Origin: an uncultured Dehalococcoidales bacterium
GTDB taxonomy: Bacteria; Chloroflexota; Dehalococcoidia; Dehalococcoidales; UBA5627
Direction: 5' to 3'
DNA: 64,000 bases
Assembly: GCA_964399425.1 (NCBI GenBank)
Contig: CAYNQR010000005.1
Location: 5,883 to 69,882, forward strand
A program made the translations under genes and the position numbers. A model generated the notes under the pieces. The model searched no databases. It had not been told where the DNA came from and saw only the letters and a list, made by a program, of their open reading frames with translations. Below are positions 1 to 39,083 of this stretch, in pieces; within the stretch, counting starts at the first letter, position 1; every line of letters starts with the position of its first letter.

Positions 1-423
1 CTCTCCGACGATAGCGCCGGCTTGAAGGTTATTAAGCTGCTTGGAGATAGGTTATCCAATCCTGATATATCGTTATATGAAACCAGTTTGGCCGGTATCA
101 ATTTGCTTGATTATTTGGTGGGTATCGATAAAGCTATAATTGTGGATGCCATTAAAACACCCGATGGTAAGCCTGGGAGTATTTACCGGTTGACTCCGGA
201 GGAATTCGACACCAGTTGCCATACCACTTCCAGTCATGATATCGGGATTATTTCTGCCATAGAATTGGGTAAAAGGCTGGAATTATCCATGCCGCAGGTA
301 ATAGAAATTATCGGCATTGAGGCAGGAGATGTTGTGACGCTGAGCGAGAAATGCACTCCTGAAGTTGAAGAGGCAATTCCGGTAGCAGCAGATATGATAA
401 TGGAAGAAGTCAATGAAAACTAG
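1..423 (+). CDS. [NiFe]-hydrogenase maturation endopeptidase (HybD/HoxW/HycI family), 5' end outside window
   Basis: The frame stays open to base 1 (LSDDSAGLKV precedes tracked ORF 22..423). Family-like stretches DAIKTPDGKPG and TSSHDIG are present. A NiFe large subunit with a C-terminal extension after DPCxxCxxH lies in the same locus. Confidence 0.75.
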   Translation, partial: LSDDSAGLKVIKLLGDRLSNPDISLYETSLAGINLLDYLVGIDKAIIVDAIKTPDGKPGSIYRLTPEEFDTSCHTTSSHDIGIISAIELGKRLELSMPQVIEIIGIEAGDVVTLSEKCTPEVEEAIPVAADMIMEEVNEN

Positions 424-457: not shown

Positions 458-486
458 TAGACAATGTAATGTTATGATAGTATAAT
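458..486 (+). promoter_or_regulatory. sigma-70-type promoter candidate (TAGACA-N17-TATAAT) for the sigma-54 gene
   Basis: TAGACA at 458-463, a 17-nt spacer and TATAAT at 481-486. The ATG at 496 is only 9 nt past the -10 box and has no Shine-Dalgarno, which suggests a leaderless or near-leaderless mRNA. Confidence 0.45.
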
Positions 487-495
487 AGTTATACA

Positions 496-1572
496 ATGTC
501 TGCTTTGTCACAAATCAATTCTCTTCAGATCAGCCAGAATGCAGGGCATTATCTCAGGATTGAACAGGCAAACCTGATACAGATGTCTTATGGTGATCTT
601 AACTCGTTAATCCTCGAAATCGAAAATAACGAAATATTTAACCGATTATTCAGGGAAGAAAAAATAATTCGATATAGGCGATTCGATAAGTCCGATTTGT
701 CTCGTAAGTATTTTACAATTGATGAATCGATGCTCATGGATAAGCGTTCACCTGAAATAGAGTCATTGCTGTTAAGCAAAAGACCAATTATCGAATATAT
801 TCGTAAAATCGGTATGGATAAATTCAGAAAATATTTCCTGTTGCCGGAAGATGGTTTATCCGAAAGCGAAATTGCTAATAACTGCACAATTACGATATCA
901 GTAGTCAGAGATATCAATAATCTGGTAAACGATGTGGCGGTAATGGATGAGTTTTATGCGTCATCCTCGCTTAATGCAAACGGCGTTAATTACACTAAAA
1001 TCGCCTCGATAGACAGAGATAAAAATGGTTTTAGCGTGAGTTATTTTTCAAATTCCCTGGCAAGAGGAAGATATATTATAGACTATGAAAAGTTCGAAAA
1101 CTCAGCGTTTACACAGAGTATTAATAAAAAAGAAATCAAAGCCGTCAGAGCGCTTTTAAAGAAGCTGGAAATGATCAATATTTACAAAGAGACACTGCAT
1201 CTGATTATCAGTAATGTAATCGCAAGACAGGCAACATATGTCGAATCGGGTAACGTCGGTGAATTATTGCCGCTGAGTCAGAAAGAACTGGCTCAGCAGA
1301 TGGGCATCAATGCCAGTACTTTAAGCCGTGCCATTAAATTCAGGACGATAGAGATTCCCTGTGGCAGAGAAGTTGCTTTAAAAAGCCTGTTCCCCAATCC
1401 TCGTAAGTTTAAGACACTTGTGCTAAAGAAAGTTGTGGAATCGGAAAAGGGAATAAATTCGGATGCCGGAATACAGGCTAAACTGGCAGAAAAATATGGA
1501 ATAAATATTTCAAGGCGTAGCGTGGCAAATATGAGAAAAGAACTGAAGATACCCGCCGGGAGAGCAAGGTAA
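496..1572 (+). CDS. rpoN: RNA polymerase sigma-54 factor, compact form (358 aa)
   Basis: The C terminus has an RpoN-box-like ISRRSVANMRKELKIP preceded by an HTH-like PLSQKELAQQMGINASTLSRAI. The N-terminal Leu/Gln-patterned region I (LQISQNAGHYLRIEQANLIQMS) is present. The protein is shorter than typical RpoN. Confidence 0.8.
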   Translation: MSALSQINSLQISQNAGHYLRIEQANLIQMSYGDLNSLILEIENNEIFNRLFREEKIIRYRRFDKSDLSRKYFTIDESMLMDKRSPEIESLLLSKRPIIEYIRKIGMDKFRKYFLLPEDGLSESEIANNCTITISVVRDINNLVNDVAVMDEFYASSSLNANGVNYTKIASIDRDKNGFSVSYFSNSLARGRYIIDYEKFENSAFTQSINKKEIKAVRALLKKLEMINIYKETLHLIISNVIARQATYVESGNVGELLPLSQKELAQQMGINASTLSRAIKFRTIEIPCGREVALKSLFPNPRKFKTLVLKKVVESEKGINSDAGIQAKLAEKYGINISRRSVANMRKELKIPAGRAR

Positions 1573-3522
1573 ATGAGTATTATATATACGGAAAAAGACA
1601 AATGTAAGAGTTGCTATGCCTGTATACGCAGTTGCCCGGTTAAAGCTATTAAAGTCGAGGAACGCTTGGCACAGGTGATCAGGGAACGTTGTATTGTATG
1701 CGGTAACTGCCTTGAGGTATGCGTTACGGGAGCAAAAAAAGCGGAAAGCGATACCAGTCTGGTGTGGCAGCTGCTGAGCCAGAGCGATAATTACCTGATA
1801 GCAGTAGTCTCCTCGTCTTTTCCTGCCGCTATACCTGAAGTTGCGCCGGGCAGCTTTGTTTCGGCATTGAAGAAACTAGGTTTTAATGAGGTTATGGAGG
1901 ATTCTTTCGGCGCAGAACTTATTGCCAGGGAATATGCGCGTCTCCTGAGCAATCAGGTTAGTAAACCTGTATTGTCATCGAATTGTCCTGCGGTTGTTAA
2001 CTATATAGAAAAATATTACCCGAAATTAATCGGATATATGGCTCATATCGTATCGCCGACTATTGCAACCGGGAGGCTGATTAAAAAGCATTATAATACT
2101 AAAGCAAAAGTGGTTTTTGTCGGACCTTGTGTAGCGAAAAAAGATGAGGCGCGAAATATAAGTAACCGTGGTGTCGTAGATGCGGTTTTAACATTTGCCG
2201 AAGTCAAAGAGATGTTTATGGCGAAAAATATAGTTCCCGATAAGGAACCCCAATCTGACTTTAACGGGCCGACTCCCGATATGGGAAGACTGATGTCGAT
2301 TTCAGGCGGATTGGCTAAAATTGCCGGTTTGTCGGATGATATTTTGAAAAACGAGGTTATCAGCGCCAACGGCAGGGAAGCAGTATCGAAAATATTAAAG
2401 GAATTTGCCCGCGGCGAGATTAATGCCAAATTGATTAACCTTTATTTTTGCAACGGGTGTGTCGGCGGCCCGGTTATCGATAATGAACTGAGCAGTTACA
2501 GGCGTGAAGAACTCGTTGCCCGCTATGCAATAAGAACGTCCAATCCTGAAAAAACAGAGCGTGACCTGAATAAATACAGTGATGTCGACCTGCGGAGACA
2601 GTTCACCACGCAGAATGTGGTTTTTGCATCACCGTCTGAAGAAGAAATAGAAGAAGTTATGCAAAAAATAAACAGAAGGAATCCGGAGGAGCAATTTAAT
2701 TGCGGTGCCTGCGGTTATAGTTCCTGCCGCGAACTGGCAATTGCGGTTTGCGAGGGGTTGGCAGAAATCGAAATGTGCTGGCCTTATTTACATAAACACA
2801 TGAAAGAGACGCAGGAAGGTTTGATACAGGCTGAAAAAATGACTTCTCTCGGGCAATTGGCAGCTTCCGTCGCTCACGAGATTAATAACCCGTTATCGGG
2901 TGTTCTTATCTATACACAGCTTATGGCTAAGAAATTAAAGAGTGACAATTTTGCTCCGGATGTTGCTCTTGATTACCTGTCTAAAATGGAAACGGAACTC
3001 AATCGAAGTACCAAACTGGTCAGAAGCCTGCTTGATTTTTCAAGGCAGTCGGTTCCCGAGTTTTGGGAAGTCGATGTCAATGAAATAGTCGACAGGAGTT
3101 TCGACCTGGGAATACATTCCGCTGAAATGCAAAATGTTAAGGTATTTAAAGAACTGTCTTCCGAATTACCGAAAATAACAGCTGATTTCGGACAGATTCA
3201 ACAGGTCTGCACCAATCTTATAATGAATGCCATACAGGCGATGCCCGGCGGCGGGGTTTTAAAGATCCATACTTTAATGGAAGCAAATGAGGTTCTAATC
3301 GAAGTAAGCGATACCGGCTCAGGTATATCGGCAGAGAATATGAAAAAAATATTCACCCCGTTTTTCACCACCAAAAGGGATAAAAAAGGGGTCGGATTGG
3401 GACTGGCGATATCCTATGGTATCGTACAGCGTCACCATGGAAGAATCGAAATACAGACAAAAGAAGGGGAAGGCACTACTTTCAAAGTTTACCTGCCTGT
3501 AAAGCATGAAGAAGAAGGTTAA
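1573..3522 (+). CDS. sensor histidine kinase with N-terminal ferredoxin plus [FeFe]-hydrogenase H-cluster-like domain
   Basis: Two 4Fe-4S motifs (CKSCYACIRSCP, CIVCGNCLEVC). H-cluster-like motifs SSNCP, GPCVAKKDE and FCNGCVGGP. A CGACGYSSCRELA Fe-S motif. Then H-box AHEINNPL, N-box NLIMNAIQAM, and G-boxes DTGSGI and GVGLGL. No TM segment is evident. The ATG directly follows the rpoN stop (TAAATG). Confidence 0.8.
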   Translation: MSIIYTEKDKCKSCYACIRSCPVKAIKVEERLAQVIRERCIVCGNCLEVCVTGAKKAESDTSLVWQLLSQSDNYLIAVVSSSFPAAIPEVAPGSFVSALKKLGFNEVMEDSFGAELIAREYARLLSNQVSKPVLSSNCPAVVNYIEKYYPKLIGYMAHIVSPTIATGRLIKKHYNTKAKVVFVGPCVAKKDEARNISNRGVVDAVLTFAEVKEMFMAKNIVPDKEPQSDFNGPTPDMGRLMSISGGLAKIAGLSDDILKNEVISANGREAVSKILKEFARGEINAKLINLYFCNGCVGGPVIDNELSSYRREELVARYAIRTSNPEKTERDLNKYSDVDLRRQFTTQNVVFASPSEEEIEEVMQKINRRNPEEQFNCGACGYSSCRELAIAVCEGLAEIEMCWPYLHKHMKETQEGLIQAEKMTSLGQLAASVAHEINNPLSGVLIYTQLMAKKLKSDNFAPDVALDYLSKMETELNRSTKLVRSLLDFSRQSVPEFWEVDVNEIVDRSFDLGIHSAEMQNVKVFKELSSELPKITADFGQIQQVCTNLIMNAIQAMPGGGVLKIHTLMEANEVLIEVSDTGSGISAENMKKIFTPFFTTKRDKKGVGLGLAISYGIVQRHHGRIEIQTKEGEGTTFKVYLPVKHEEEG

Positions 3523-4864
3523 AATTCTGGTAGTCGATGACGAAGGCGTAATCCGTGATTCGTTTTGCGAATGGCTGAGCGAACTCGGTTATGATGTTTT
3601 AATGGCCGAGAACGGGAACAAAGCTTTACAAATGATTAAGGAGAAGAAACCGGAGATTGCTTTTATCGACCTTGTCATGCCGGGTATGGACGGGATAGAA
3701 GTATTAAAGAGGGCCAGGGGAATATCGACTGATACCGGCTGCGTTGTCATGACGGCATATGGCAGCGTATCGACAGCTATAACCTCGATGAAAGAAGGGG
3801 CTTTCGACTATATAGAGAAACCCTTTTGTCCGGGGAAAGTCGAACTGTTAATTGAAAAACTGATTGAACATCAGAATATAAAAAAAGAGAATCTGCTATT
3901 GCAGCATAAGCTTGATGAACGTTACAGCTTCGAGAATATTATTTATAAAAGCGCCAAAATGCATGGGGTAATAGAATTGGTGAAAGCTGTCGCCAAGAGC
4001 AATGCCACTGTACTTATAACAGGAGAAAGCGGTACCGGTAAAGAACTTGTTGCGAAGGCAATACATAACTACAGCTATCGGCATAATAAACCGTTCGTGG
4101 CTATAAGCTGCGCCGCTCTGCCTGAGAATATACTTGAAAGTGAATTGTTCGGGCATGAAAAGGGTTCGTTTACCGGTGCGCACGTTCAAAGGAAAGGGAA
4201 ATTCGAATTTGCCGATAGCGGTACCCTTTTTATGGATGAAATCGGCGAAATGAGCGCCAATATACAGGTACATTTACTTAGAGTTTTAGAGGAAAAGGAA
4301 TTTATGCGCGTAGGAGGCAATGAACTTGTTAAGGTAGATGTCCGTTTAATATCTGCTACAAATAAGGATATGAAGCAGGAAGTCAAGCAGGGAAAATTCA
4401 GGGAAGACCTGTATTACAGGCTGAATGTGGTAAATATCGAACTCCCTTCATTACGCGATAGAAAAGAAGATATTCCGCTGCTTGCCGGGCATTTTTTGAA
4501 ACAGTTTGCTTTGGAAAACCAAAAAGAGATTGGCGGTTTCAAATCCGATGCAATGGATATTTTATTGAAATACGATTGGCCCGGTAATGTCAGAGAATTG
4601 GAAAATGCAGTAGAACGGGCGGTAATACTTTCAAAAAACGGCTTTATAGATAAAACAGACCTGTTAATGGAAGAAACGGGCGCTCTCCGGGGAGAAAAAT
4701 CCTTAGACAGCATAACGGAAATCGAAAAGAAACACATTGAAAATGTTTTAGATAAATGCGGCGGGAATTACAGCAAAACCGCCTGTATATTGGGGATTTC
4801 ACGGATGACTCTTTATAATAAAATTAAAGCTTACGGCATAGAAATGCACAAGATTAAAAAATAG
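3506..4864 (+). CDS. sigma-54-dependent response regulator (NtrC family: REC + AAA+ + Fis-type HTH)
   Basis: Receiver (VVDDEG, FIDLVMPGMDG, KPF), Walker A GESGTGKE, GAFTGA-type loop GSFTGA, and C-terminal HTH TACILGISRMTLYNKIK. Overlaps the kinase gene by 17 nt. Confidence 0.9.
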   Translation: MKKKVKILVVDDEGVIRDSFCEWLSELGYDVLMAENGNKALQMIKEKKPEIAFIDLVMPGMDGIEVLKRARGISTDTGCVVMTAYGSVSTAITSMKEGAFDYIEKPFCPGKVELLIEKLIEHQNIKKENLLLQHKLDERYSFENIIYKSAKMHGVIELVKAVAKSNATVLITGESGTGKELVAKAIHNYSYRHNKPFVAISCAALPENILESELFGHEKGSFTGAHVQRKGKFEFADSGTLFMDEIGEMSANIQVHLLRVLEEKEFMRVGGNELVKVDVRLISATNKDMKQEVKQGKFREDLYYRLNVVNIELPSLRDRKEDIPLLAGHFLKQFALENQKEIGGFKSDAMDILLKYDWPGNVRELENAVERAVILSKNGFIDKTDLLMEETGALRGEKSLDSITEIEKKHIENVLDKCGGNYSKTACILGISRMTLYNKIKAYGIEMHKIKK

Positions 4865-4884: not shown

Positions 4885-4900
4885 TGGCAAGAAAATTGCA
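4885..4900 (+). promoter_or_regulatory. sigma-54 (-24/-12) promoter
   Basis: TGGCAAGAAAATTGCA matches the consensus TGGCACG-N4-TTGCW at every fixed position except one, with correct GG-to-GC spacing. It lies 45 nt upstream of the ATG at 4945 and just downstream of the activator gene. Confidence 0.7.
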
Positions 4901-4944: not shown

Positions 4945-5355
4945 ATGAAATCAGGTGAACTTATAGCTATTAATCCAAAGGATGTGCCTGAGCATTTTAA
5001 AATCGGGCAGGATAATTATAATAATGCCAAGTATAACGACGCAATAATAGAGTTCAGTTCCATATTAAATGTGGTTCCTGATAATATCGAAGCCAGGATA
5101 TGGCTCAGGAAAGCGCAGGAATCCTTGGAAAAAGAGAAAGGTGTAACTGCTCAGAAGATTGCGAATCCAAAGATTAAGGAATTAAAGGAACGCCCCGGCG
5201 CGCAAAGGTACTGCCTGTATTGTGTAAAAGGGAATGTTTCTAACAGAGTGTGCAGCCGCCTCTTTCAGTGCAAGACCTGTGAATTCGGACAGGGGATGCA
5301 GGATATTCAAAAGGAGAAATTGTCGGCTAAAAGTAATGAATCGTTGAAGAAATAA
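4945..5355 (+). CDS. hypothetical protein, TPR-like N-terminus and Cys-rich (zinc-ribbon-like) C-terminus
   Basis: ORF with SD GGGAGGG 7 nt upstream. Cys pattern YCLYC...C...CKTC. It is the first cistron downstream of the sigma-54 promoter. Confidence 0.5.
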   Translation: MKSGELIAINPKDVPEHFKIGQDNYNNAKYNDAIIEFSSILNVVPDNIEARIWLRKAQESLEKEKGVTAQKIANPKIKELKERPGAQRYCLYCVKGNVSNRVCSRLFQCKTCEFGQGMQDIQKEKLSAKSNESLKK

Positions 5356-5432
5356 TTATCAGTTAATAATATTTAATTTGTTATTTGATATTTAACCGAA
5401 TATCGCAAATAAATAAAAAGGGGATGTGCAAT

Positions 5433-7766
5433 ATGAACGAGAGCTCAGTCCTTATCGTAGAAAGCGACCCCATTGTCAGGGATTCCCTCTGCGACTGGTT
5501 GAAGGACACCGGATTTGATGTCATTTCCGTTGAAAGCGGAGAAGAAATTATCCAGGTTGTCAGGAACCATGATTTTAACATCGTTATTATGGATGTCAGG
5601 CAGCAAGGGGAAAAACAACTGGCAACACTCAGAGAAATGAAAGCCGCAAATCCCTGGGTTAAATCAATCATTATTACCGCTTACCCGCAGGAAGAAACAG
5701 TTCTGGAAGCCAAAAAAATCGGTGTTGTAGATTATATGGTAAAGCCCCTGGATATGGACGACCTGCAAAGGATTATTCGCGGAACGGTTGAATCTATTTA
5801 CAAGGATAGTATGAATTCGGGAGAAATGGATTCAAATAGGGAATCGTATGCTGATAATATGGTATTGGAGATAAAAAAATCCTTTTCGATATCCAGGGAA
5901 AATCTCGCTTTAATGGTGGAGAACCTTATTAAAGAAATCGAAGTGGTAGGGGTAAAAGCCAGACAGGGCAAATATGTATTCGATAGAATAAACAGTTTCT
6001 ATGAACTGAGTCTCGACTATGATGTTACGGTATCTCCTCCGACCAGATATTTTTTCCCGGAAAGGGAAACACTTTTAAAATTTAAAACAGGCAGCAATCC
6101 ACAGGTTGAATCGGTTATTAATTATACTGCAAGAGTAATAATCGGGGTACATCCTTACGATATCAAGGCTATCGAGTTACTGGATGAAGTGTTTATAGTT
6201 CATAATCCCGACCCGAATTACATCGCAAAAAGAGAAAATACGGTAATAATAGGTATAGATTGCCTTCACCCGTCGCGAAAAAGTTTTGCCCCCAGCATGG
6301 GAACGAACTGGACTGAAACCGGCTTTGACCTGTTGTTAACGGATATCGGCAGCAGCTATATTGTCAAAATCGGCTCGGAAAAGGGCGTCGATATATTGAA
6401 GAAACATGCAAAATACAGAATACCCACCGGTGATGAAATCGTCAGGCAGAAAAAGGTAAGGGGTGAGGCACTGGGAAGATATAAAATTGCTCTCGACCTC
6501 CCCAAAGACCGTATCCCCAAAATCCTGGAAGAAAGTTATGACGACCCTTACTGGGAAACGAGAAGCTCTACCTGTTTAAGTTGCGGTTCCTGTGTTATGG
6601 TTTGTCCGACATGCTACTGTTTCGATGTCAGGGATGATATAGATTTGAATCTGAAAGAAGGCGAACGTTTCAGACGCTGGGACGGGTGTATGCTTGTTGA
6701 TTTTGCCAAAGTTGCTTCCGGAGAGAACTTCCGCCGCGATAAAGCCAGCCGCTTTCGTCACAGAATATTCAGAAAAGGTAAATATATACTGGAAAGATAT
6801 GGCAAGGCAGGTTGTGTCGGTTGCGGACGTTGTTCCAGCGCTTGTTTAGCAAGCATCGCAAGTCCGCTGGAAGCCTTTAATTCCATTGCGGAAAATATAC
6901 GGATGAAAGAAGCCGCTACCAGTCTGGTACAGCCTGCCAGGCAGGGGAAAGAGCTTTATGCCCCCGAGATGGCTGAAATCGTATCTGTCAGGCAGTTAAC
7001 CGAAAAGGAGAAGGTTTTCGAGTTAAGGTTGAAGAGCGGGAAAAAACTGGGTCATTCTCCCGGTCAGTTCATTACTCTATCGATACTCGGTGTAGGAGAG
7101 GCTCCCTTATCTATATCCTCGTCTCCCTTAAGAGGAAAGACCTTTCAGCTGGCAGTAAGAAATATGGGCGATTTGACTTCTGCTCTGCATTCTTTGCAGG
7201 CGGGAGCAATCGTCGGTATACGCGGACCGTTCGGACACGGTTTCCCGCTGGAGACACTGGAGGGTAAAGATTTATTGCTGATAGCGGGAGGTATCGGGAT
7301 TTTCCCGTTGCGTTCGTTAATACAATATGTCATGGATAGAAGATACGACTATGGTAAAGTCAGCTTGCTGTACGGTTGCCGCACACCTGCCGAAAGGGTA
7401 TTTACGGATGAACTCGATTACTGGCAGAATAGCGATGAAATAGATTTCCATGAAACGGTTGATAAAAAGGATGATACGTGGACCGGAAATGTAGGTGTGA
7501 TTACCAATCTAATCGATAAAGTTGAAATAGACCCCAAGAAAACAATGGTGGCAGTTGTCGGACCGCCGATAATGTATAAATTCGTCATTGAAAAATTGAA
7601 AAAAAGAGACCTTCCGGATGACCATGTCTACCTTTCTCTGGAAAGAAAGATGAAATGCGGAGTCGGGAAATGCGGTCATTGCCAGATAAATGGAGTTTAT
7701 ACCTGTCAGGAAGGGCCTGTATTTTCGTTAACTCAATTAAGAAGTCTTAGAGAGGCGGTGCTGTAA
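5433..7766 (+). CDS. receiver domain fused to sulfhydrogenase-type beta (4Fe-4S) and gamma (FAD/NAD(P), 2Fe-2S) subunits
   Basis: REC: LIVESD, IVIMDV, IITAY, VKPL. Beta-like part: CLSCGSCVMVCPTCYC and CVGCGRCSSAC. Gamma-like part: GQFITLS, IAGGIGIFPLRS and CGVGKCGHCQI..C. The tracked ORF starts at 5385, but the ATG at 5433 has the better SD (AAGGGGA). Confidence 0.8.
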   Translation: MNESSVLIVESDPIVRDSLCDWLKDTGFDVISVESGEEIIQVVRNHDFNIVIMDVRQQGEKQLATLREMKAANPWVKSIIITAYPQEETVLEAKKIGVVDYMVKPLDMDDLQRIIRGTVESIYKDSMNSGEMDSNRESYADNMVLEIKKSFSISRENLALMVENLIKEIEVVGVKARQGKYVFDRINSFYELSLDYDVTVSPPTRYFFPERETLLKFKTGSNPQVESVINYTARVIIGVHPYDIKAIELLDEVFIVHNPDPNYIAKRENTVIIGIDCLHPSRKSFAPSMGTNWTETGFDLLLTDIGSSYIVKIGSEKGVDILKKHAKYRIPTGDEIVRQKKVRGEALGRYKIALDLPKDRIPKILEESYDDPYWETRSSTCLSCGSCVMVCPTCYCFDVRDDIDLNLKEGERFRRWDGCMLVDFAKVASGENFRRDKASRFRHRIFRKGKYILERYGKAGCVGCGRCSSACLASIASPLEAFNSIAENIRMKEAATSLVQPARQGKELYAPEMAEIVSVRQLTEKEKVFELRLKSGKKLGHSPGQFITLSILGVGEAPLSISSSPLRGKTFQLAVRNMGDLTSALHSLQAGAIVGIRGPFGHGFPLETLEGKDLLLIAGGIGIFPLRSLIQYVMDRRYDYGKVSLLYGCRTPAERVFTDELDYWQNSDEIDFHETVDKKDDTWTGNVGVITNLIDKVEIDPKKTMVAVVGPPIMYKFVIEKLKKRDLPDDHVYLSLERKMKCGVGKCGHCQINGVYTCQEGPVFSLTQLRSLREAVL

Positions 7767-8506
7767 TGAAACCAAAAGTTGCCTTCTTCGATTTTACAGG
7801 ATGCGAGGGTTGCCAACTGGATGCATTAAATTTGGATGCCCAAGATTTAATCGACCTGCTGAGCGGTATTGATATCGTCAATTTCAGGGAAGTTATGACG
7901 GAAAGGGATGATAATTACGATATCGCTTTTGTCGAGGGCAGTATCACTACCGAGGGAGAAATAGCCCGAATTCAGAAAATCAGGGAACAGGCCAAGATAG
8001 TTGTTGCGCTGGGCGCCTGCGCCTGTATCGGTGGAATTAATTGCCTGAAAAACCATGTTCCAATGGAAGAAGCTCTCAGAATCGTGTACGGCAAGGATGC
8101 TGGATATTATAATACCATACCTGCCAGACCTGCCGATGCGGTTATAAAAGTCGATTACTATGTCAGGGGCTGCCCTCCGGTAACATCCGAACTGGTTAAA
8201 GTGATTAAAGCTTTGTTATTGAATAAAAAGCCCGACATTCCCAGCTATCCCGTATGCGTGGAATGCAAGATGGCTGGTAATATCTGTGTCTACGAAAAGG
8301 GACAGACATGTCTGGGTCCGGTTACCAGGGCAGGGTGCAGCGCTATATGCATTAACAGCGGTAGATACTGCTGGGGATGTCGCGGATTGGTTGATGAACC
8401 GAATATAGAATCACAAAAAGATATTTTGACAAAATACGGGCTCACAGCCGAACAGGTAATAGAAAAATTTAAAATATATGATACATGCAGTGAGGTGTTA
8501 AAATGA
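7766..8506 (+). CDS. hydD: [NiFe] hydrogenase small (delta) subunit, group 3 type
   Basis: Cys motifs FTGCEGCQ, GACACIGG and RGCPP, plus a C-terminal Cys cluster. The start overlaps the upstream stop (ATGA). The beta-gamma-delta-alpha gene order matches the Pyrococcus sulfhydrogenase operon. Confidence 0.8.
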   Translation: MKPKVAFFDFTGCEGCQLDALNLDAQDLIDLLSGIDIVNFREVMTERDDNYDIAFVEGSITTEGEIARIQKIREQAKIVVALGACACIGGINCLKNHVPMEEALRIVYGKDAGYYNTIPARPADAVIKVDYYVRGCPPVTSELVKVIKALLLNKKPDIPSYPVCVECKMAGNICVYEKGQTCLGPVTRAGCSAICINSGRYCWGCRGLVDEPNIESQKDILTKYGLTAEQVIEKFKIYDTCSEVLK

Positions 8507-9789
8507 CACAGGTTAACATAAATGTTCATCAATTAACCCGTGTCGAAGGACATGGCAACATCGTTCTCAATGTAAAAGATGGGAAAATAGAAGAACTTAA
8601 ATGGATTGTTACCGAATCCCCCCGTTTCTTTGAAGTGATGATGCGGGACAGATACTACGAAGACGTTAATCACATCGCATCGAGAATATGCGGTATCTGT
8701 TCGATATCCCATTCTACCGTATCCTTACAGGCTACTGAAAAAGCATTCGGAGTGAGACCATCCGAACAGACCATACTCTTAAGAAAACTGTTATTTAACG
8801 CCGAATTATTAGAAAGCCATATTTTACACGTGATGTTCCTGGCGGCTCCTGATTTCCTGGGAGTAGGCAGCGTTTTCCCCTTGGTCGATACTCACAAAGA
8901 TGTGGTTATCATGGCATTAAGGTTGAAACGGCTTTCTTATAATCTGGCCGAGGCACTTGCCGGCAGAAAAACGCATCCTCTTTCATGCATCGTGGGCGGA
9001 TTTGCCAAGCTGCCGCAATACAGCGAACTTGAAGCCTTGCGCAAAAGACTGGAAGATGCGCTGGTCGATCTTGCTGCAATAGTCGATATTTTTAAAACGT
9101 TGAAGATTCCCGATTTTACCAGGGAAACTGAGTATATTGCGTTAAAAGACGATAATGAATACGCCTTTATCAGCGGACAGATTGCATCTTCCGATGCCGG
9201 GCTTACTCCCGTTGAAAACTATTTAAAGGTTACCAACGAGTTTTGTGTTCCGCACTCTACGGCTAAATATACTAAAAACGCCAGGGATTCGTATATGGTA
9301 GGGGCGCTGGCGCGTTTTAATATCAACCATGACAAACTGCTGCCGAAAGCTAAAAACGCCGCGGCAGAGCTTGGGCTGTCAGCTCCCAACTTCAATCCGT
9401 TTATGATAACCGTGGCACAGCTGGTAGAAGTAGTTCATGCCGTTGAACACAGCATCCAGATAATCGACCGTCTGTTTGAAAAAGGACTCAAGGAAGAACC
9501 CAACCTGGTCACCCCGAAGAGGGGTAGGGGTATTTCAGCGGTTGAAGCTCCCAGGGGTATCCTTTTCCATGACTATTCCTATGGAGAAAGCGGCATCTTG
9601 AAAGAAGCCAACTGTGTAATACCGACAAATCAGAATCATAATAACATTCAAAAAGACTTTGAAGCGCTGGTTCCTTTAATCCTTTGTCAACCGGAAGATG
9701 AAATACGGCATACTATGGAGATGTTGGTAAGGGCATACGACCCTTGTATATCTTGTTCCACACACATGTTGAGAATTAATTTTAAGTAA
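8503..9789 (+). CDS. hydA: [NiFe] hydrogenase large (alpha) subunit, group 3b-like
   Basis: N-terminal RICGICSISH (RxCGxC) and C-terminal DPCISCSTH followed by the 7-residue tail MLRINFK, a protease substrate. At 428 aa, the size is typical of sulfhydrogenase alpha. Confidence 0.85.
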   Translation: MTQVNINVHQLTRVEGHGNIVLNVKDGKIEELKWIVTESPRFFEVMMRDRYYEDVNHIASRICGICSISHSTVSLQATEKAFGVRPSEQTILLRKLLFNAELLESHILHVMFLAAPDFLGVGSVFPLVDTHKDVVIMALRLKRLSYNLAEALAGRKTHPLSCIVGGFAKLPQYSELEALRKRLEDALVDLAAIVDIFKTLKIPDFTRETEYIALKDDNEYAFISGQIASSDAGLTPVENYLKVTNEFCVPHSTAKYTKNARDSYMVGALARFNINHDKLLPKAKNAAAELGLSAPNFNPFMITVAQLVEVVHAVEHSIQIIDRLFEKGLKEEPNLVTPKRGRGISAVEAPRGILFHDYSYGESGILKEANCVIPTNQNHNNIQKDFEALVPLILCQPEDEIRHTMEMLVRAYDPCISCSTHMLRINFK

Positions 9790-12453: not shown

Positions 12454-12538
12454 GGGGGAGTGTCGGAACTGGCAGACGAGCAAGACTTAGGATCTTGTGC
12501 CGCAAGGCGTGGGGGTTCAAATCCCCCCTTCCCCACCA
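12454..12538 (+). tRNA. tRNA-Leu (anticodon TAG), CCA encoded
   Basis: Hand-folded cloverleaf. Acceptor GGGGGAG/CTTCCCC (one G-U pair), anticodon stem CAAGA/TCTTG with loop CTTAGGA, long variable arm TGCCGCAAGGCGT, T arm GGGGG-TTCAAAT-CCCCC, then A-CCA. Confidence 0.85.
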
Positions 12539-12756: not shown

Positions 12757-14514
12757 ATGCAAGGTGATGAACTAAAAAATAAAGCAAATCCACCCCAGGA
12801 ACTTCCCCCACCCCCCAAAATTCTTACAAAACCGCTTCCTGCTATTCTGGATGATATGGAAGCCAATATCAGGGCTGCCGTTGAAGCTGCCAAGAGAGCT
12901 GAAGACGCTTCGAAGAAAGCCAATGAGGCTGCAGTATTGGCTACACAAGCATCAGGAGAAGCGGAAAAAAGAGCGGAAGATGCCCGTAAGGCAGGGGAGA
13001 CCGCTGCACAGAAAGCTACTGCGGCAGCCGCTGAGGCGGCGGCTAAAGCTGAACGGATAGCTCAAATTGCCATTGCCGATGCCGAGAAAGCAGAGAAGAA
13101 AGCGAAAGAGGCAGCGGATGCCGCCAGCAGAGCGGCAGAAGAAGCGGCAAACAGAGCGGAAGAAGCAGCTCTTCGTGCTGAAGAAATAGCCCGGGCAGCT
13201 CAATATGCTGCCGAGGAAGCTACCGCAAAATCCAACGAAGTTGCACAGGCGGCTAAGGAAGTGGCTGCCGCTGCATTGAAAGCGGCAGAGGAAGCAGCTA
13301 TAAGGGCTGAAGATGCGGCAATTCTTGCCAGAGAAGCTGTAGAACGCTCTATCGAGGCGGCAAATGCGGCAGCGAAGCAGGCGGAAAATTCGGCAAAACT
13401 AGCGAAGTCGGCAACGGCAGAGGCGAACAAAAATCTGAATGCCGAGTCTGCCAAGAAAGCTGACGAAGCCGGTAGAGACTCCAAAAAAGCGGCAGCTGTT
13501 GCCTTCCGTTTGGCCGATGAAACTGCCAGAAAAGGCGAATTGGCTGACATTGCCGGAGACGCGGCTATACTGGCGGCTAGCAGAATATCCGGAATGCTGG
13601 CTGAAAGAATTGATGAATCGGGCAAGGATGCCAAAGAAGCTGCTTCGAAAGCATCCCGTATTGTAGATGAGACTGCCAGGAAAGCAGAATTAGCAGATGC
13701 CGCCGGTGATGAAGCGATGGCGGCAGCTATAAATGCCCTTGCCGAACAGGCTGCAAAGAGAGCACGGGAAGCAGCTATCGCAGCTAAAGAATCAGCTTTA
13801 AGTTCGATAGAAGCTGCAAAAGCGGCATCAAAGATATCCGATGAAAAACTGGAATTGGCTAAAGCGGCAGCGGCAGAAGCAGCGGCAAAGAGTACTGTAG
13901 AATCCGCCGGAAAGGCTGATGAGGCAGGCAGAGAAGCCAAGAAGGCTGCATTGGCTGCAACGCGCTTAGCTCAGGAAGTAGCCAGGAAAGGGGAACTGGC
14001 GGGAATTGCAGGCAGAGAAGCAACGGAAGCTGCGACAAAAGTATCCGGTGAATCTGCTATAAGTACTGCGCAGGCAGGCAAAGAAGCCAGTGAAGCATCG
14101 ATTGCGGCTGCAAAACTGGCTGAAGAGGTAGCGAAAAAAGCAGAGCAGGCAGATATAGCGGCAGATAAGGCTCTGGCAGCGGCTATTTCGTCAGCCGTAG
14201 CTCAGGCATTTGCCAAAGCGGAAGAAGCTCAAAGGGCTTCGCAGACAGCCAGCGCCAGAGCTGCCGATATTGCAAGAATGAGGGCTGAGGAAACCGATAA
14301 AGCAGCGAGGGAAGCGGTTGCCCGTGCTGAGGAAATAGCCAGGGCAGCGCAGAAAGCCGCTGACGAAGCCTTGGCAAAAGCGGAAGAAGCGCTTGTCAAG
14401 AAGATAGTCAGAAAACTCACGCAATCGGAGTGGGTGATATACATGATAATTATCATTCTGGCGATTGTTATGGGTTCCGTTTTCCTGGCTGTTGCTTTGA
14501 CTACCGGATTATAA
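12757..14514 (+). CDS. alanine/glutamate/lysine-rich coiled-coil protein, C-terminal transmembrane anchor
   Basis: 585-aa ORF with SD AAAGGAGG. A Pro-rich N-terminus (PPQELPPPPK) and about 520 aa of A/E/K-rich sequence with four recurring units of the type AG(R/K)(D/E)(A/S)K.AA...RL..E.A(R/K)K.ELA.(I/A)AG. One terminal TM (WVIYMIIIILAIVMGSVFLAVALT). No signal peptide. Confidence 0.7.
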   Translation: MQGDELKNKANPPQELPPPPKILTKPLPAILDDMEANIRAAVEAAKRAEDASKKANEAAVLATQASGEAEKRAEDARKAGETAAQKATAAAAEAAAKAERIAQIAIADAEKAEKKAKEAADAASRAAEEAANRAEEAALRAEEIARAAQYAAEEATAKSNEVAQAAKEVAAAALKAAEEAAIRAEDAAILAREAVERSIEAANAAAKQAENSAKLAKSATAEANKNLNAESAKKADEAGRDSKKAAAVAFRLADETARKGELADIAGDAAILAASRISGMLAERIDESGKDAKEAASKASRIVDETARKAELADAAGDEAMAAAINALAEQAAKRAREAAIAAKESALSSIEAAKAASKISDEKLELAKAAAAEAAAKSTVESAGKADEAGREAKKAALAATRLAQEVARKGELAGIAGREATEAATKVSGESAISTAQAGKEASEASIAAAKLAEEVAKKAEQADIAADKALAAAISSAVAQAFAKAEEAQRASQTASARAADIARMRAEETDKAAREAVARAEEIARAAQKAADEALAKAEEALVKKIVRKLTQSEWVIYMIIIILAIVMGSVFLAVALTTGL

Positions 14515-17747: not shown

Positions 17748-20432
17748 TTATAAATCCATCACCGCTTTCAATTCGTTATCGGATACATTTTCCAGGCGGA
17801 AACCAAGGTTGCGGACAAGATTTATCATCTTGATATTATCCTTGAGGATAATTCCGTATAAACCTTTAAGATTCTTTTCCCTTGCAATGCCGATCAGCAT
17901 ATCCGTCAATTTATGCCCCAGCCAGATATCCTGAAACTCATCGGCGATAACGGTGGCAAATTCCCCGAATTCCTTTCCGGATTCTATAATCAAGCGGCTC
18001 ACGCCTACCAGCCGCTTCTTGCCGGTTCCGTTATATTCAGCTACGATTGCTATCTCTCTATCGTAATCTATATTGCAAAAACGGCTCAGCATATCATGAG
18101 TAAATTCATTTATCGGATGGAAAAACCTGAAACTCTTGGATTGCGGAGATAATGAATCCAAAAGCGCATGTTCCAGCGGTTCGTCTTCCGGGCGAATAGG
18201 ACGCAGCAATACCTGTTTCCCGTCGTGACATGTCCATGTTTGGATATAGCGGGTCGGATAGGGAGAAATAATCAGGTGGGAAGATTCTGCCACTCCCTTC
18301 TTGATAACGTCCAAATCCAACACGATACGGGCATCCAGAGCTATTACCTTCCCTTCACTGATAACGAGCGGATTAATATCCAGTTCAGCAATTTCAGGGA
18401 AATCGACAATCATATTCGACACCCTTATCAGCGTTTCATCTATTAGGTGAAGGTCGACAGGCGGTTTGCTTCTGAAACCCTTGGATAATGCCGAGTATAT
18501 TTTGGTTCCCTCGACCAATCTTCTTGCCAGCACCTGGTTCAGGGGAGGCAGCCCGATTGAAATGTCTTTGTGATATTCCGCCTCGATGCCGCCCTGCCCG
18601 AATATTATTACCGGACCCAACGTCACATCTTTTTTACTGCCGATAATAAGCTCATAGTCATATTTACCGACCATTTTCTGTATAGTAACGCCGTCAATCT
18701 TAGCTTTAGGTGCGTTTTGTTTAACAGTTTCCATCATATTTGCATATGCCTGTTGAAGCTGCTGCGGGTTTTTAATATTTAAGGCAACGCCGCCGACATC
18801 GGATTTATGAGAAATGTCCGGGGATTGTATTTTCATAACTATCGGATAACCGACGGAATCCGCAGTGGCAATCGCCAGGTCGACATCCTTGGCAAAAAAC
18901 GGATAGCTCACCCCGATACGGTATGTATTGAGGAATTTCTTCGAATCCTCTTCGTTTAATAATGTTTCCCCTTTGTTTACGGCGTTATTTATAATCGTCT
19001 TCAAATGGTTTTTGGCAATACCGACGTCGAATGGAATGTCTTCAGGTATCTGATACAGACTTTCCAGGTTCTTAGCATATTTATACATATAAAGATAGGC
19101 TTCCATTGCTTCTTCGGGGAATTCATATGTCGGCACTTTATTGGCATAGAAAAGTTGTCTTGCTCCGGCGACGTCCTTGCTTCCCATCATTGTGGTAAGA
19201 ATAGGCTTGGTACTCTTTTTGGATATCTTTACAATACCTTTTGCCACGTCGGTAGCATTTGCTGCACCCTGCGGAGTATAAATAACGACGATACCGTTGA
19301 TACCCGGGTCCTTAAGTGCGACTTCTATGGCTTTGGTATAACGTTCGGCATCGGCATCCCCGAGTATATCTATCGGATTTGCCTTGCTCCAGAAAGGCGG
19401 TAAAACTTCATTCAGGGCATTAATTGTTTCCGGTGATAAAACGCTGAGTTTTCCGTCTTTAGCGATCAGGGCATCCGTTGCAAGAACGGAAGGCCCTCCT
19501 GCGTTGGTAATAATGGCAACATTTTGCTCTTTGGGAAGATGCGTGGAATCGAGTATCGACGCACAATTGAAAAGGTCGGCAACTTCATCTACGCGTACGA
19601 CGCCGGCACGATTGAAGACAGCATCGTAATATGCGTCGTCACCGACAAGTGCGCCGGTGTGGGATTTTGCCGCCTGAATACTCTCCTGGAATTTACCCGG
19701 TTTGATAACGATAATCGGTTTACTGCGGGCAAAACCGCGCGCAGCGCTCATAAAATTCTTGACGCTTGCCAAAGTATTGCCTATTGTTTCCATGTAAATA
19801 ATGATGCTCTTGGTTTCCGGGTCATCTCCGAAATAGTCTATAAGGTCTCCGAAATCGACGTCCATCATGCTTCCTATGGAAACGAAGGCGCTGAAACCGA
19901 TATCCCTGTTGATTGCCCAGTCGAGAACTGCAGCGCCCAGAGCTCCGCTCTGAGAAAGGAATGCTATATTCCCTGACTTTGTAATCTTGCGGGCAAAAGA
20001 ACCGCTGAAATCGGCACAGGGGCGCATAGAACCCAGACAGTTCGGCCCCATGAGGCGGATATTGTTTTTGCGACATATTTCCATTACCTTTTCAAGGCGT
20101 TCATTTCCAGCTTTTCCGGCTTCTTTAAATCCGGCGGAAATAATGGTAATCGCTTTGGTTCCGATTTCAGCGCAGCTTTCGACTATAGCAGGCACATTTT
20201 CCGCGGCAATGGTAATAATTACGAGTTCGGGGACTTCGGGGAGGCTGGCAAGGTTTGGATAACACTTTAAATCGAGCAGGGTTTCATATTTGGGATTGAT
20301 TGGATATACCTTGCGTTTGTCTTTGCCGATGATAAGGTTTTCCAACACAATATTTCCGATTGCTCCCGGCCGATTGGAAGCTCCTACCAGTGCAACGCTC
20401 TGCGGGTCGAAAAATGAATTGATTTTGTTCAT
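17748..20432 (-). CDS. NDP-forming acyl-CoA synthetase (fused alpha/beta) with C-terminal GNAT acetyltransferase domain (Pat-like architecture)
   Basis: N-terminal CoA-binding region PQSVALVGASNRPG, a SHTGAL His loop, an ATP-grasp region, and a C-terminal roughly 190-aa GNAT-like domain (IAIVAEY...GHKLTDMLIGIAREKNLKG). At 894 aa it is similar in size to Pat/YfiQ-type proteins. Confidence 0.75.
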   Translation of the reverse strand: MNKINSFFDPQSVALVGASNRPGAIGNIVLENLIIGKDKRKVYPINPKYETLLDLKCYPNLASLPEVPELVIITIAAENVPAIVESCAEIGTKAITIISAGFKEAGKAGNERLEKVMEICRKNNIRLMGPNCLGSMRPCADFSGSFARKITKSGNIAFLSQSGALGAAVLDWAINRDIGFSAFVSIGSMMDVDFGDLIDYFGDDPETKSIIIYMETIGNTLASVKNFMSAARGFARSKPIIVIKPGKFQESIQAAKSHTGALVGDDAYYDAVFNRAGVVRVDEVADLFNCASILDSTHLPKEQNVAIITNAGGPSVLATDALIAKDGKLSVLSPETINALNEVLPPFWSKANPIDILGDADAERYTKAIEVALKDPGINGIVVIYTPQGAANATDVAKGIVKISKKSTKPILTTMMGSKDVAGARQLFYANKVPTYEFPEEAMEAYLYMYKYAKNLESLYQIPEDIPFDVGIAKNHLKTIINNAVNKGETLLNEEDSKKFLNTYRIGVSYPFFAKDVDLAIATADSVGYPIVMKIQSPDISHKSDVGGVALNIKNPQQLQQAYANMMETVKQNAPKAKIDGVTIQKMVGKYDYELIIGSKKDVTLGPVIIFGQGGIEAEYHKDISIGLPPLNQVLARRLVEGTKIYSALSKGFRSKPPVDLHLIDETLIRVSNMIVDFPEIAELDINPLVISEGKVIALDARIVLDLDVIKKGVAESSHLIISPYPTRYIQTWTCHDGKQVLLRPIRPEDEPLEHALLDSLSPQSKSFRFFHPINEFTHDMLSRFCNIDYDREIAIVAEYNGTGKKRLVGVSRLIIESGKEFGEFATVIADEFQDIWLGHKLTDMLIGIAREKNLKGLYGIILKDNIKMINLVRNLGFRLENVSDNELKAVMDL

Positions 20433-24457: not shown

Positions 24458-25096
24458 TTATCCTTGCCTTCCCGATTTTCGAACTTCTCTGGGCTGACTT
24501 TTACCCAGGGTCATATTTACGATCCAGCGCCAGTGCTGGATAACATGTATTATAATTATTGCCAGCATTAATATAGCTACCCAGGCATGAATGTCCAGCC
24601 ACTCGTTCCTCTGCAACCCCCAGAAAGTGCGGCCGATTCCGGATACCATATTATTGTAGTCCAACATCCCCCTCGGTAAAACAAGCCAGATAACACAGCC
24701 TGACAACACCTGAAAAGCAGTCATGATGAACAATACAAAGTTAGTAATATAGCGTTCCAGTATTGCTTTTTGACGTGTTGCAAAGTAGTCTTTAACCTTT
24801 ATAGCAGTCTCAACAATCCACCGCCAGTTAGTTGCCATATGCAAGAAAACAATAAATATAGCCGCAACTGATAACCATGAGTGAATATCAACCCACATAT
24901 ATCGTGGTAATTGAAATATCCTCAAGTAGTTACCTGCCTGTCCTAAACCCAATTGTAGACAATGATAACCTCCATGTTCGCCAACACCCCTTGGTATAAC
25001 AAACCAAAGTATATAACTTGATATGATGACAGCTATAAATATGCATATCAGAAGCAAGACAATTGCATAATTACCATAATTTCTATACTTCACCAT
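24458..25096 (-). CDS. DUF4405-like integral membrane protein (internally duplicated, conserved His pairs)
   Basis: Two homologous halves, each with (V/L)(I/L)PRG, W(V/L)DIH(S/A)W and H..(T/Q)(N/H)WRWIV. Four or more TM segments. The start lies 3 nt after the stop of the upstream radical SAM gene. Confidence 0.65.
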   Translation of the reverse strand: MVKYRNYGNYAIVLLLICIFIAVIISSYILWFVIPRGVGEHGGYHCLQLGLGQAGNYLRIFQLPRYMWVDIHSWLSVAAIFIVFLHMATNWRWIVETAIKVKDYFATRQKAILERYITNFVLFIMTAFQVLSGCVIWLVLPRGMLDYNNMVSGIGRTFWGLQRNEWLDIHAWVAILMLAIIIIHVIQHWRWIVNMTLGKSQPREVRKSGRQG

Positions 25097-25099
25097 TCA

Positions 25100-26788: not shown

Positions 26789-26929
26789 GGTCGGGTTTCA
26801 GTCTCTCTTCACATTTAAATTTATTAAGATGAAATTGCTGTATCAGTCATATACAGCTTCATTCTATGCCTGTAATAAGTGAGTATTTATCATGTGCAGA
26901 ATGATGAAGATGGAGAAACCTTAATTTTA

Positions 26930-28489: not shown

Positions 28490-28620
28490 AATTTTATTAC
28501 TCAGCTTTAATAGATACTTAAATAATTTATATAATAATATTAATACCAGCCTTAAGCAACACGAATAAGCTGAATTCAGCCAAATTATGGATTTGTACGC
28601 CTGTTCACTTCAAGAGTTTC

Positions 28621-28662
28621 AATGAGCCTCCGTCACCATTAGAACGGTGACGGAGGCTCATT
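28621..28662 (-). terminator. 17-bp perfect GC-rich hairpin downstream of the Mo-enzyme operon (no U-tract)
   Basis: AATGAGCCTCCGTCACC (28621-28637) pairs with GGTGACGGAGGCTCATT (28646-28662). It lies 18 nt past the stop of the 28680..29276 gene. No clear T-run follows on either strand. Confidence 0.4.
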
Positions 28663-28679
28663 TAGACAATTTCGTTTCT

Positions 28680-29276: not shown

Positions 29277-29303
29277 ATATCACTCCTTTTCCAGAAAACA
29301 TAA

Positions 29304-30113: not shown

Positions 30114-30117
30114 TTAA

Positions 30118-33072: not shown

Positions 33073-33189
33073 TTTTTTATTTCTCCTTTCATAGATTCTA
33101 ATTAAATAACACAAGTTGTTTAATAGGCATCCCCTCCTTTTTGACTGCTGACATTGATATAAATATAATTTAACGATTAACCTCAGAAT

Positions 33190-34592: not shown

Positions 34593-34593
34593 T

Positions 34594-37941: not shown

Positions 37942-38358
37942 AATCCAGTATTCGCCCCGAAATAGTAGTTGCTATTATGAGTTTTTTATTTTCTAGAAAT
38001 GATCATACAGTAACAGAAATGATTGTGAAATGGCTATGAAATTTAAGGTAATGGTATACTAATTTTAAACAGAGGTCAATAGCAGATTCCTGAACTTTTG
38101 CATTGTACATTCTTCTCTTTAATTGTTCAATGAATCCATTAATCCATATTTATGAGATGATTACTTATAAGACATTTTTAGACATAACTATAAAATTTAT
38201 ACGGGATTTTCTCTTCATCCAGAATGTCCTGAAATTCACTAAAAGCTGACTGATGTTTATAATATCTTAGTTTAGGGATACCAATGGTTCCATTTTCTCA
38301 AATAAAGGTTGAGTGATGTCAGATTAAGTCAAGACTACTACATCTATATATTTATATA

Positions 38359-39042: not shown

Positions 39043-39083
39043 TTTAATATCTCCTCCTGTTGACTACTGAGATATAAATGTTC

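Follow-up and report, generated by a model that had tools for sequence, protein, structure and literature searches.

The described signalling systems functionally closest to the one reported here are the H2-sensing cascades HoxBC-HoxJ-HoxA of Cupriavidus necator (Ralstonia eutropha) and HupUV-HupT-HupR of Rhodobacter, in which an H2 sensor signals to a histidine kinase and the kinase to an NtrC-family regulator of energy-conserving [NiFe] hydrogenases. In C. necator the output of HoxA runs via sigma-54 promoters, and H2 keeps the regulator unphosphorylated and active. Sensors of the HupUV type form [NiFe] group 2b, labelled 'histidine kinase-linked' in HydDB (PMC5037454). The same logic appears to recur in a 64,000-nt stretch of DNA (the window) from an uncultured Dehalococcoidales bacterium, whose open reading frames (ORFs) were listed in six frames. 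Three adjacent genes encode a compact sigma-54-family protein, an [FeFe]-hydrogenase-like sensor histidine kinase and an NtrC-type response regulator, and they are followed by a sigma-54-type promoter and a [NiFe] hydrogenase operon (Table 1). Unlike in the Hox and Hup systems, where a [NiFe] heterodimer serves as a separate sensor and docks on a kinase with a PAS domain, the sensor is here of the [FeFe] type and fused in the kinase, a private compact sigma-54 paralogue is encoded in the operon, and the predicted target hydrogenase carries a receiver domain of its own. We think it probable that these parts constitute a compact switch, in which the HydS-type kinase, the activator and the sigma-54-like factor act at the promoter of the [NiFe] hydrogenase in response to H2 or to redox poise.

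With the putative sensory [FeFe] hydrogenases TmHydS (group C, M2f), TamHydS (group D, M2e) and RaHydS the kinase shares two N-terminal [4Fe-4S] clusters, the lack of the C299 relay (CpI numbering) and of the group A proton pathway, the substitution of M353 and M497 and a C-terminal Cx2Cx4Cx16C motif (PMC8163306, PMC10055695). That motif was defined for the M2e/M2f 'sensory' enzymes (PMC8163306) and is, along with the loss of C299, their hallmark; TmHydS has Ala at C299, Gly at M353 and Ser at M497, and both TmHydS and TamHydS bind an H-cluster and turn over H2 slowly (PMC8163306, PMC10055695). Unlike these enzymes, the kinase described here has neither a PAS domain nor a partner Ser/Thr phosphatase or kinase, its C-terminal cluster running straight into HisKA/HATPase, and the C299 position holds Asn or Thr, Ala being the commonest residue in group C. 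HydDB lists group C1 as 'histidine kinase-linked (putative)' (PMC5037454), and a fused HATPase_c is shared with Hydrogenedentota members of this group (PMC11406978). In structure the sensor is nearest to the HydS enzymes of groups C and D, and the protein most plausibly belongs to group C1. Unlike the C1 members described so far, it is linked to a private sigma-54, an NtrC-type activator, a promoter and a [NiFe] target, a connection undescribed in the literature searched. The same literature contained no biochemistry on a kinase-fused sensory [FeFe] hydrogenase and nothing on group C hydrogenases of Dehalococcoidia or their maturases, and the protein is a new member of a class known from classification alone.

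The sigma-54-like protein resembles canonical RpoN, including the Aquifex aeolicus form without Region II, in its ELH-HTH, its RpoN box, a putative Region I-like start and the GG-N10-GC geometry of its promoter; dependence on an AAA+ activator would follow from the linkage of the two genes. It differs from canonical RpoN in length (358 against 400-500 aa), in the absence of a recognisable core-binding domain, in place of which there is a family-specific domain of about 100-150 aa, and in apparently serving one promoter. The gene stands beside those of its own activator and kinase, whereas in E. coli the context is lptB-rpoN-hpf-ptsN. In NCBIfam the kinase core scores highest with AtoS (227 bits) and ZraS (178 bits), and the regulator with AtoC (509 bits) and ZraR (442 bits), all below the equivalog cutoffs. 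The input domain differs entirely from that of the AtoS/AtoC and ZraS/ZraR systems. The literature searched contained no report of a compact sigma-54, nor of sigma-54 in Dehalococcoidia, and the compact family, its strict coupling to kinase, activator and promoter, and the receiver-bearing hydrogenase are likewise undescribed there.

An earlier note on this DNA had read the three regulatory genes as one tightly packed unit. The ORF coordinates bear this out, with a TAAATG junction between the genes for the sigma-54-like protein and the kinase and a 17-nt overlap (3506-3522) between those for the kinase and NtrC, and the recurrence of the same genes in the same order across dozens of species-level genomes confirms that the arrangement is not a chance one. 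One genome per GTDB species was scanned, which gave 96 relatives of the sigma-54-like protein and 80 loci that were kept, nearly all from metagenome-assembled genomes (MAGs) of Dehalococcoidia; tblastn was run with the window proteins, and the 66 loci with at least 2.6 kb of downstream sequence were taken as informative. The long-contig neighbourhoods show the order sigma-54-like gene, HydS-type kinase gene, NtrC gene. An NtrC-type activator lies beside the sigma-54-like gene in all 66 informative loci, and the two genes still adjoin in a few divergent loci labelled Elusimicrobia, Clostridia or Actinomycetota. No locus contains a second activator, and the window contains neither another sigma-54 activator nor a second rpoN. 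The activator itself has the expected domains (Response_reg, Sigma54_activat with E 6e-74, AAA_lid_14 and HTH_8 by Pfam), a GSFTGA loop at residue 220 and the Walker A motif GESGTGK. The commonest other neighbours are genes for an HdrA-like protein (24 loci), HdrCB, MvhD, [NiFe] subunits and HycI, and the cassette resides among H2- and ferredoxin-linked redox genes.

The kinase is the variable member of the cassette. It is hydrogenase-like in 50 of the informative loci, of a different type in 12, and degraded or missing in 4. The alternative kinase, found in 16 loci by clustering, has 411-424 aa, an N-terminus with multiple transmembrane segments and no Fe-S motif, so that in these species the input module is exchanged on a constant output. 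The sensor-to-sigma-54 cassette of the earlier note is therefore a conserved unit in 50 loci, but one not exclusive to the hydrogenase-like sensor. The loci with the swapped kinase are L004 (5283-6539), L022, L024, L025, L032, L048, L051, L053, L056, L059, L064, L067 and L091; their cassettes keep the sigma-54-like gene and NtrC and, save in L004, L022 and L059, also the gene for a receiver-TPR-Cys protein considered below.

Beyond what the earlier note had described are the promoter, its target operon and a receiver domain in addition to that of NtrC. A strict TGGCA-N6-TTGC[AT] site lies behind ntrC in 48 loci (47 in the first count), and a position weight matrix (PWM) built from the strict sites adds versions with one mismatch in 14 more, giving 62 of the 66 loci and the consensus ATTTTGGCAAGAAAATTGCA. 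The site in the window has one mismatch to TGGCAC-N5-TTGCW and the correct GG-N10-GC spacing. In a PWM scan of 1.07 Mb on both strands, every match of at least 18.8 bits was on the + strand and in the promoter region of a cassette, and four weak matches (14-15 bits) were found elsewhere in the loci. The same 17-mer is present in loci whose sigma-54-like proteins share just 40-66% identity, and in most species it stands directly behind the terminator hairpin that closes the regulatory operon. With an activator in 66/66 loci and a conserved promoter in 62/66, the circuit does look self-contained, as had been suggested from the one sequence.

Tandem copies of the promoter were seen in five loci (L045, 9182/9240; L048, 10760/10818; L076, 11156/11211; L058, 5202/5256; L021, 11472/11595), 54-58 bp apart in four of them and 123 bp in one. 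Across the window the count of sigma-54-type sites is not above that in shuffles, and the sites at 1362 and 56197, which are intragenic and unconserved in relatives, were treated as chance matches.

The promoter of the window stands ahead of a [NiFe] hydrogenase operon, in keeping with an output related to H2. All four subunit parts have sulfhydrogenase subunits as their best NCBIfam matches, each below its equivalog cutoff, and the NAD(P)/FAD and Fe-S modules of group 3b are present. The Pyrococcus group 3b sulfhydrogenase (HydBGDA/ShyBCDA) has the same four subunit types in the order beta-gamma-delta-alpha; unlike in that enzyme, beta and gamma are here fused and a receiver (REC) has been added at the N-terminus, the true start of the fusion probably being the ATG at 5424 or 5433. 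In 46 loci the gene behind the promoter encodes a REC-TPR-Cys protein of about 360 aa, with a receiver, a single TPR repeat and a Cys-rich motif that occurs twice (for example L007, 14469-15506, and L009, 14575-15603). In the clade of the window this gene is split, the 136-aa ORF corresponding to its C-terminal part and the receiver (45% identical) being found on the HydB/HydG fusion, an arrangement also present in L005/L006, L011, L014, L017, L030 and L079. The Cys-rich motif, approximately C-x2-C-x10-12-C-x6-C-x2-CEF-x-Q, occurs once in the 136-aa ORF and twice in the longer proteins, for which the one TPR repeat and the receiver were the only matches in Pfam, NCBIfam and the PDB. The receiver of the fusion shows the acidic pocket and the Asp, Thr and Lys residues that an active receiver should have, and its alpha-1 helix (VRDSLCDWLKDTGFDV) resembles that of NtrC (IRDSFCEWLSELGYDV). 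Alpha-1 is the receiver helix that makes most of the contacts with a kinase. Since the two alpha-1 helices are alike, it can reasonably be inferred that the kinase feeds both receivers, that of NtrC and that of the HydB/HydG fusion. To our knowledge, no receiver-bearing hydrogenase subunit has been described.

As to the sensor, the domain models that bear on the proposal (Fe_hyd_lg_C, PF04060, HisKA, HATPase_c and Sigma54_activat) matched in the expected genes, and the picture drawn from the sequence in the earlier note holds in its particulars. Pfam finds no PAS domain in the kinase, which also lacks a transmembrane segment (highest 19-residue Kyte-Doolittle mean, 1.28); the enzyme is thus soluble, with the HydS-type unit as its sole input. 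Its cysteines comprise eight of ferredoxin type, four of the H-cluster, five in the C-terminal region and one other. In alignments to solved hydrogenases the motifs SSNCP, GPCVAKKDE and FCNGCVGGP fall on TSCCP, MPCTAKKFE and ACNYGCVGGGGQP of T. maritima HydA, so that Asn137 occupies the position of the proton-relay Cys. The additional C-terminal Fe-S motif is followed directly by the HisKA/HATPase core, with about 30 residues between the cluster and the phospho-acceptor His435. The hallmarks of the sensory enzymes and the putative status of the kinase-linked class, which the note had stated, agree with the papers cited above.

Conservation was followed in the kinases of 54 species. The four H-cluster Cys are present in 54, 54, 52 and 54 of them, the equivalents of CpI K358 and E361 in 52 and 51, the C-terminal cluster Cys in 53-54, the eight ferredoxin Cys in 51-54, and His435 in all. 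The position of C299 is Asn in 28, Thr in 21, Ser in 2, Ala in 2 and Cys in none; that of M353 is Gly in 49 and Ser in 5; and that of M497 is Y, F, C or H. Among the closest homologues, the 120 listed have the same HisKA/HATPase fusion; about 109 of them are of 644-660 aa, and the shorter ones include three without HATPase_c. Of the hydrogenase models in NCBIfam, FeFe_hydrog_B1 scores highest, with 196 bits where the cutoff is 450.

This pattern is open to a second reading, in which the domain holds only [4Fe-4S] clusters, as in proteins of the Nar1/NARFL type, and reports how far ferredoxin or some other donor is reduced, with an otherwise unchanged cascade. It is a serious rival, which we regard as possible rather than probable. 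Nar1-like proteins also retain the four cysteines and a PCxxKK motif. Several findings weigh against an H2 sensor and lean towards a redox-only one. Genes for the maturases HydE, HydF and HydG were found neither in the window nor among the conserved neighbours of the 80 loci, so that the [2Fe] subcluster is putative; the motif opposite APAVR in the pocket reads SSSFP, beside Gly for M353, Tyr or Phe for M497 and Asn or Thr for C299; and the segment between L2 and L3 of the H-domain is shorter than in CpI. In Hydrogenedentota, H-cluster motifs were hardly found in the group C1 members with fused HATPase_c (PMC11406978). The cassette itself is not specific to H2, given that 12-16 species carry the membrane kinase in it. 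Set against the redox-only reading, the substitutions at the pocket positions recur in TmHydS and TamHydS, which have a functional H-cluster and turn over H2 (PMC8163306, PMC10055695); the four Cys, the Lys and the Glu are kept across the 54 species; and the cassette lies between two [NiFe] hydrogenase operons, one of which it is predicted to control.

The identity of the sigma-54-like protein has to be considered separately. A separate search of 5.8 billion proteins returned 96 relatives, whose lengths nearly all fall within 330-400 aa (the exceptions being two truncated proteins of 250 and 272 aa and two that run slightly longer) and in which Pfam finds Sigma54_DBD and generic HTH models and no other sigma-54 domain. 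Those with a named origin come from Dehalococcoidales, Dehalococcoidia or Chloroflexi MAGs, and the whole short family amounts to about 350 clusters, almost all in Dehalococcoidia MAGs. An alignment of 72 members is conserved over its full length, with F48, G106, F110, F114, L115, Y166, A170 and G191 invariant in the N-terminal half and R278, R340, R341, R347 and the Ser-Arg of the HTH invariant in the HTH and RpoN box.

The DNA-binding half is that of a sigma-54. Sigma54_DBD matches the window protein (E 9e-18) and 72/72 members of the alignment (best E 3e-29), comparison of this half with canonical RpoN gives hhalign probabilities of 97.8-99.4%, and the family profile matches sigma-54 structures in the PDB from about residue 160 to the end (Aquifex 5ui5, E 2e-20). 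An AlphaFold2 model of the protein has a predicted local distance difference test (pLDDT) score of 80, and its top 26 Foldseek matches in the PDB are all sigma-54 chains, with alignments of 250-410 columns. The profile comparison with E. coli RpoN on its own revealed the C-terminal half only. At the other end of the protein, residues 4-50 align with residues 7-49 of E. coli RpoN at an hhalign probability of 89% (E 2e-6 for a single comparison) with a 5-residue insertion, while the Pfam domains AID and CBD were not matched in the window protein and Sigma54_AID was absent among the families matched in the 72 members.

In the middle of the protein, none of the methods applied finds a core-binding domain. 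Sigma54_CBD has no match in the 72 members, and the core-binding segment reaches an hhalign probability of 1.5% with a canonical RpoN profile of nine sequences assembled from plasmid and chromosome records. The NCBIfam rpoN model (TIGR02395) scores 72.6 bits against a cutoff of 277, with model positions 239-433 alone matched, and a low-confidence model of the N-terminal half (pLDDT 64) has no sigma-54 among its Foldseek matches. A profile of residues 1-205 matched 353 of 1.84 billion representative proteins, and the 150 listed are all of the size of the family. Canonical sigma-54 would amount to tens of thousands of clusters; since these far outnumber 353, the N-terminal profile does not match canonical sigma-54 generally. 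By these comparisons the protein starts with a putative Region I, lacks Region II, continues with a domain of about 100-150 aa that is specific to the family and ends in a canonical DNA-binding half. The label 'sigma-54' given in the earlier note is accordingly sound for the DNA-binding half and, more weakly, for Region I, but no domain that would bind core RNA polymerase is recognisable.

It is conceivable, then, that the 358-aa protein is not a sigma factor at all and descends from sigma-54 as a regulator that sits on the promoter, for instance as a placeholder or repressor occupying the -24/-12 site until NtrC removes it, transcription being left to a canonical RpoN encoded elsewhere. The failure of the core-binding and rpoN models would be explained in this way, and the names under which NCBI lists the family, 'hypothetical protein' or 'winged helix-turn-helix regulator', are in keeping with it. 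Nevertheless, we consider this unlikely. The Region I-like segment, which is the part that contacts the activator, appears to have been retained; the middle region, with its invariant G106, F110, F114 and L115, is as conserved as the DNA-binding half, as would suit a surface for binding another protein; inheritance of the gene is strictly tied to that of an activator with a loop of the GAFTGA type; and the Foldseek alignments exceed the length of the DNA-binding half. In the supplementary table of Francke et al., the columns that appear on our reading to count sigma-54 and its activators show zeros for cultured Dehalococcoides, so that a canonical partner may be less expected in this class; the argument is weak, since the organism of the window belongs to a different lineage.

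A bolder interpretation, which we put forward only tentatively, is that the protein is a true minimal sigma-54 that docks on RNA polymerase via a domain that has no sequence relationship with the canonical core-binding domain. Together with a dedicated kinase, an activator and a lone promoter it would form a portable, orthogonal one-promoter cassette, fed in most Dehalococcoidia by an H2-sensing [FeFe]-hydrogenase input, and the same kinase would phosphorylate the receiver in the [NiFe] hydrogenase. Finally, that the domain is a working metabolic hydrogenase incidentally fused to a kinase, for which the low H2 turnover kept by TmHydS and TamHydS might be cited, or that the three genes are chance neighbours, is very improbable, given that the proton-relay Cys is never present in the 54 species, that the domain is joined in frame to a kinase core that is complete and keeps its His invariant, and that gene order, overlaps and the downstream promoter are kept in at least 50 species.

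For the compact switch that we favour, sequence and comparison establish the gene anatomy, the motif conservation, the sigma-54-like/activator linkage and the conserved promoter with its target, and on this basis we propose the following sequence of events. The three regulators would be expressed constitutively from a sigma-70 promoter. Either H2 reacting at the H-cluster or the redox poise of the pool of electron donors would set the state of reduction of the Fe-S chain. The C-terminal cluster, which adjoins the dimerisation helix and lies close to His435, would be the point at which this state is read, and the balance between kinase and phosphatase activity would shift with it. The phosphorylation state of NtrC, with whichever sign the signal acts, would then decide whether its AAA+ domain remodels a closed complex of the compact sigma-54, presumably with core RNA polymerase, at TTGGCAAGAAAATTGCA. 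The promoter so activated would transcribe the TPR/Cys-rich gene together with the group-3b-like [NiFe] hydrogenase operon. The receiver on the hydrogenase would probably be a second phospho-acceptor of the same kinase, and thereby a direct and faster, post-translational output. One result that does not favour such a scheme concerns the enhancer at which NtrC would be expected: an inverted-repeat search for an upstream activating sequence round the promoter in five loci gave nothing conserved. The inverted repeats present were rejected as enhancers, since they consisted solely of the hairpin that terminates the regulatory operon and of AT-rich palindromes.

If these predictions hold, several consequences would follow. 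The [FeFe] hydrogenases of this kind have been called sensory for a decade by inference alone, and among the characterised HydS enzymes there is none with a defined signalling output; a fusion of sensor and kinase with an identifiable regulator, sigma factor, promoter and target makes H2 signalling directly testable. The sigma-54-like family, found in a class whose cultured members appear to be listed without sigma-54, raises the question of how small a sigma-54 can be and how it would dock on RNA polymerase. A receiver in the diaphorase subunit of a hydrogenase would be a new mode of controlling hydrogenase activity, and one H2 sensor would then govern both the synthesis and the activity of the enzyme. 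The small cassette could further be put to use as an orthogonal expression switch that responds to a gas.

A gap of 72 nt, which contains the best sigma-70-type site of the region, separates the sigma-54-like gene from a hycI gene whose ORF is cut by the left edge of the window. Close relatives have hycI as the last gene of a group-3c-like operon for HdrCBA-like proteins, MvhD and [NiFe] small and large subunits, the full operon being present in L005, L006 and L011. Since the ATG of the sigma-54-like gene sits 10 nt past the -10 element and no Shine-Dalgarno sequence precedes it, the mRNA from the sigma-70 promoter is probably leaderless. The arrangement TAGACA-N17-TAGTATAAT-N9-ATG is kept base for base in 8 related loci, and the form without a ribosome-binding site was noted in the window (458-498) and in L005, L011, L013, L014, L017, L019 and L020.

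Table 1. Features of the regulatory operon, its predicted promoters and the downstream [NiFe] hydrogenase operon (positions in nt of the window unless given as residues).
Feature	Position	Strand	Remarks
HycI-type hydrogenase maturation protease gene, 3' part	1..423	+	Pfam HycI, E 6e-15
Predicted sigma-70-type promoter of the regulatory operon, TAGACA-17-TATAAT	458..486	+	Top of the site scan, 11/12 matches
Compact sigma-54-family gene	496..1572	+	358 aa
Putative Region I-like N-terminus of the sigma-54-like protein	residues 4-50, nt 505-645	+	hhalign
Family-specific middle domain of the sigma-54-like protein	about residues 57-205	+	
ELH-HTH and RpoN box of the sigma-54-like protein	residues 210-358, nt 1123-1569	+	
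HydS-type [FeFe]-hydrogenase-like sensor histidine kinase gene	1573..3522	+	649 aa
Two ferredoxin-type [4Fe-4S] motifs, 8 Cys	1582..1734, kinase residues 4-54	+	Fer4 family matches
H-domain: C138, C186, C293, C296; N137; K189, E192	1795..2472, kinase residues 75-300	+	Fe_hyd_lg_C, E 2e-52
C-terminal Cx2Cx4Cx16C Fe-S motif (C377, C380, C385, C402)	2692..2781, kinase residues 374-403	+	PF04060, E 7e-10
Kinase core, AtoS/ZraS-like: HisKA (426-491, H-box SVAHEINNPL) and HATPase_c (541-644)	2848..3504	+	
NtrC-type (AtoC/ZraR-like) sigma-54-dependent response regulator gene	3506..4864	+	452 aa
Predicted -24/-12 promoter TGGCAAGAAAATTGCA	4885..4900	+	20 nt past the ntrC stop, 45 nt ahead of the next ATG
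136-aa protein, one TPR-like repeat and Cys-rich motif	4945..5355	+	Homologous to the C-terminal part of REC-TPR-Cys proteins
REC and fused HydB+HydG (beta+gamma) of a group-3b-like NAD(P)-linked [NiFe] hydrogenase	5385..7766	+	
[NiFe] hydrogenase small (delta, HydD-like) subunit	7766..8506	+	
[NiFe] hydrogenase large (alpha, HydA/ShyA-like) subunit, RICGICSISH and DPCISCSTH	8503..9789	+	

Beyond these operons, the minus strand of the window encodes, at 24458-33114, a 998-aa molybdopterin oxidoreductase, a Fer4_11 subunit with CarboxypepD_reg, a membrane protein of the DUF4405 family and two radical SAM proteins that bind B12; the radical SAM genes (25100-28489) were considered as HydE/G and rejected, being those of B12-binding class B enzymes. 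Also on this strand, 33906-42341 holds two tandem pairs of a beta-propeller (Reg_prop/Y_Y_Y) histidine kinase of about 1100 aa and an OmpR-type regulator, in the stretch of lowest GC content of the window (0.33-0.35), and 17748-20432 encodes an 894-aa protein with domains like those of ADP-forming acyl-CoA synthetases and a C-terminal GNAT domain, the architecture of a Pat-type protein acetyltransferase. A 585-aa protein rich in Ala, Glu and Lys (12757-14514), probably a coiled coil with a C-terminal membrane anchor and belonging to no Pfam family, coincides with a local peak in GC content (0.49) and in AT skew (0.23). An IS110-family transposase gene (51497-52444) adjoins tRNA-Arg(TCT) at 52862-52936, and tRNA-Leu at 12454-12538 is the sole other RNA gene found in the window.

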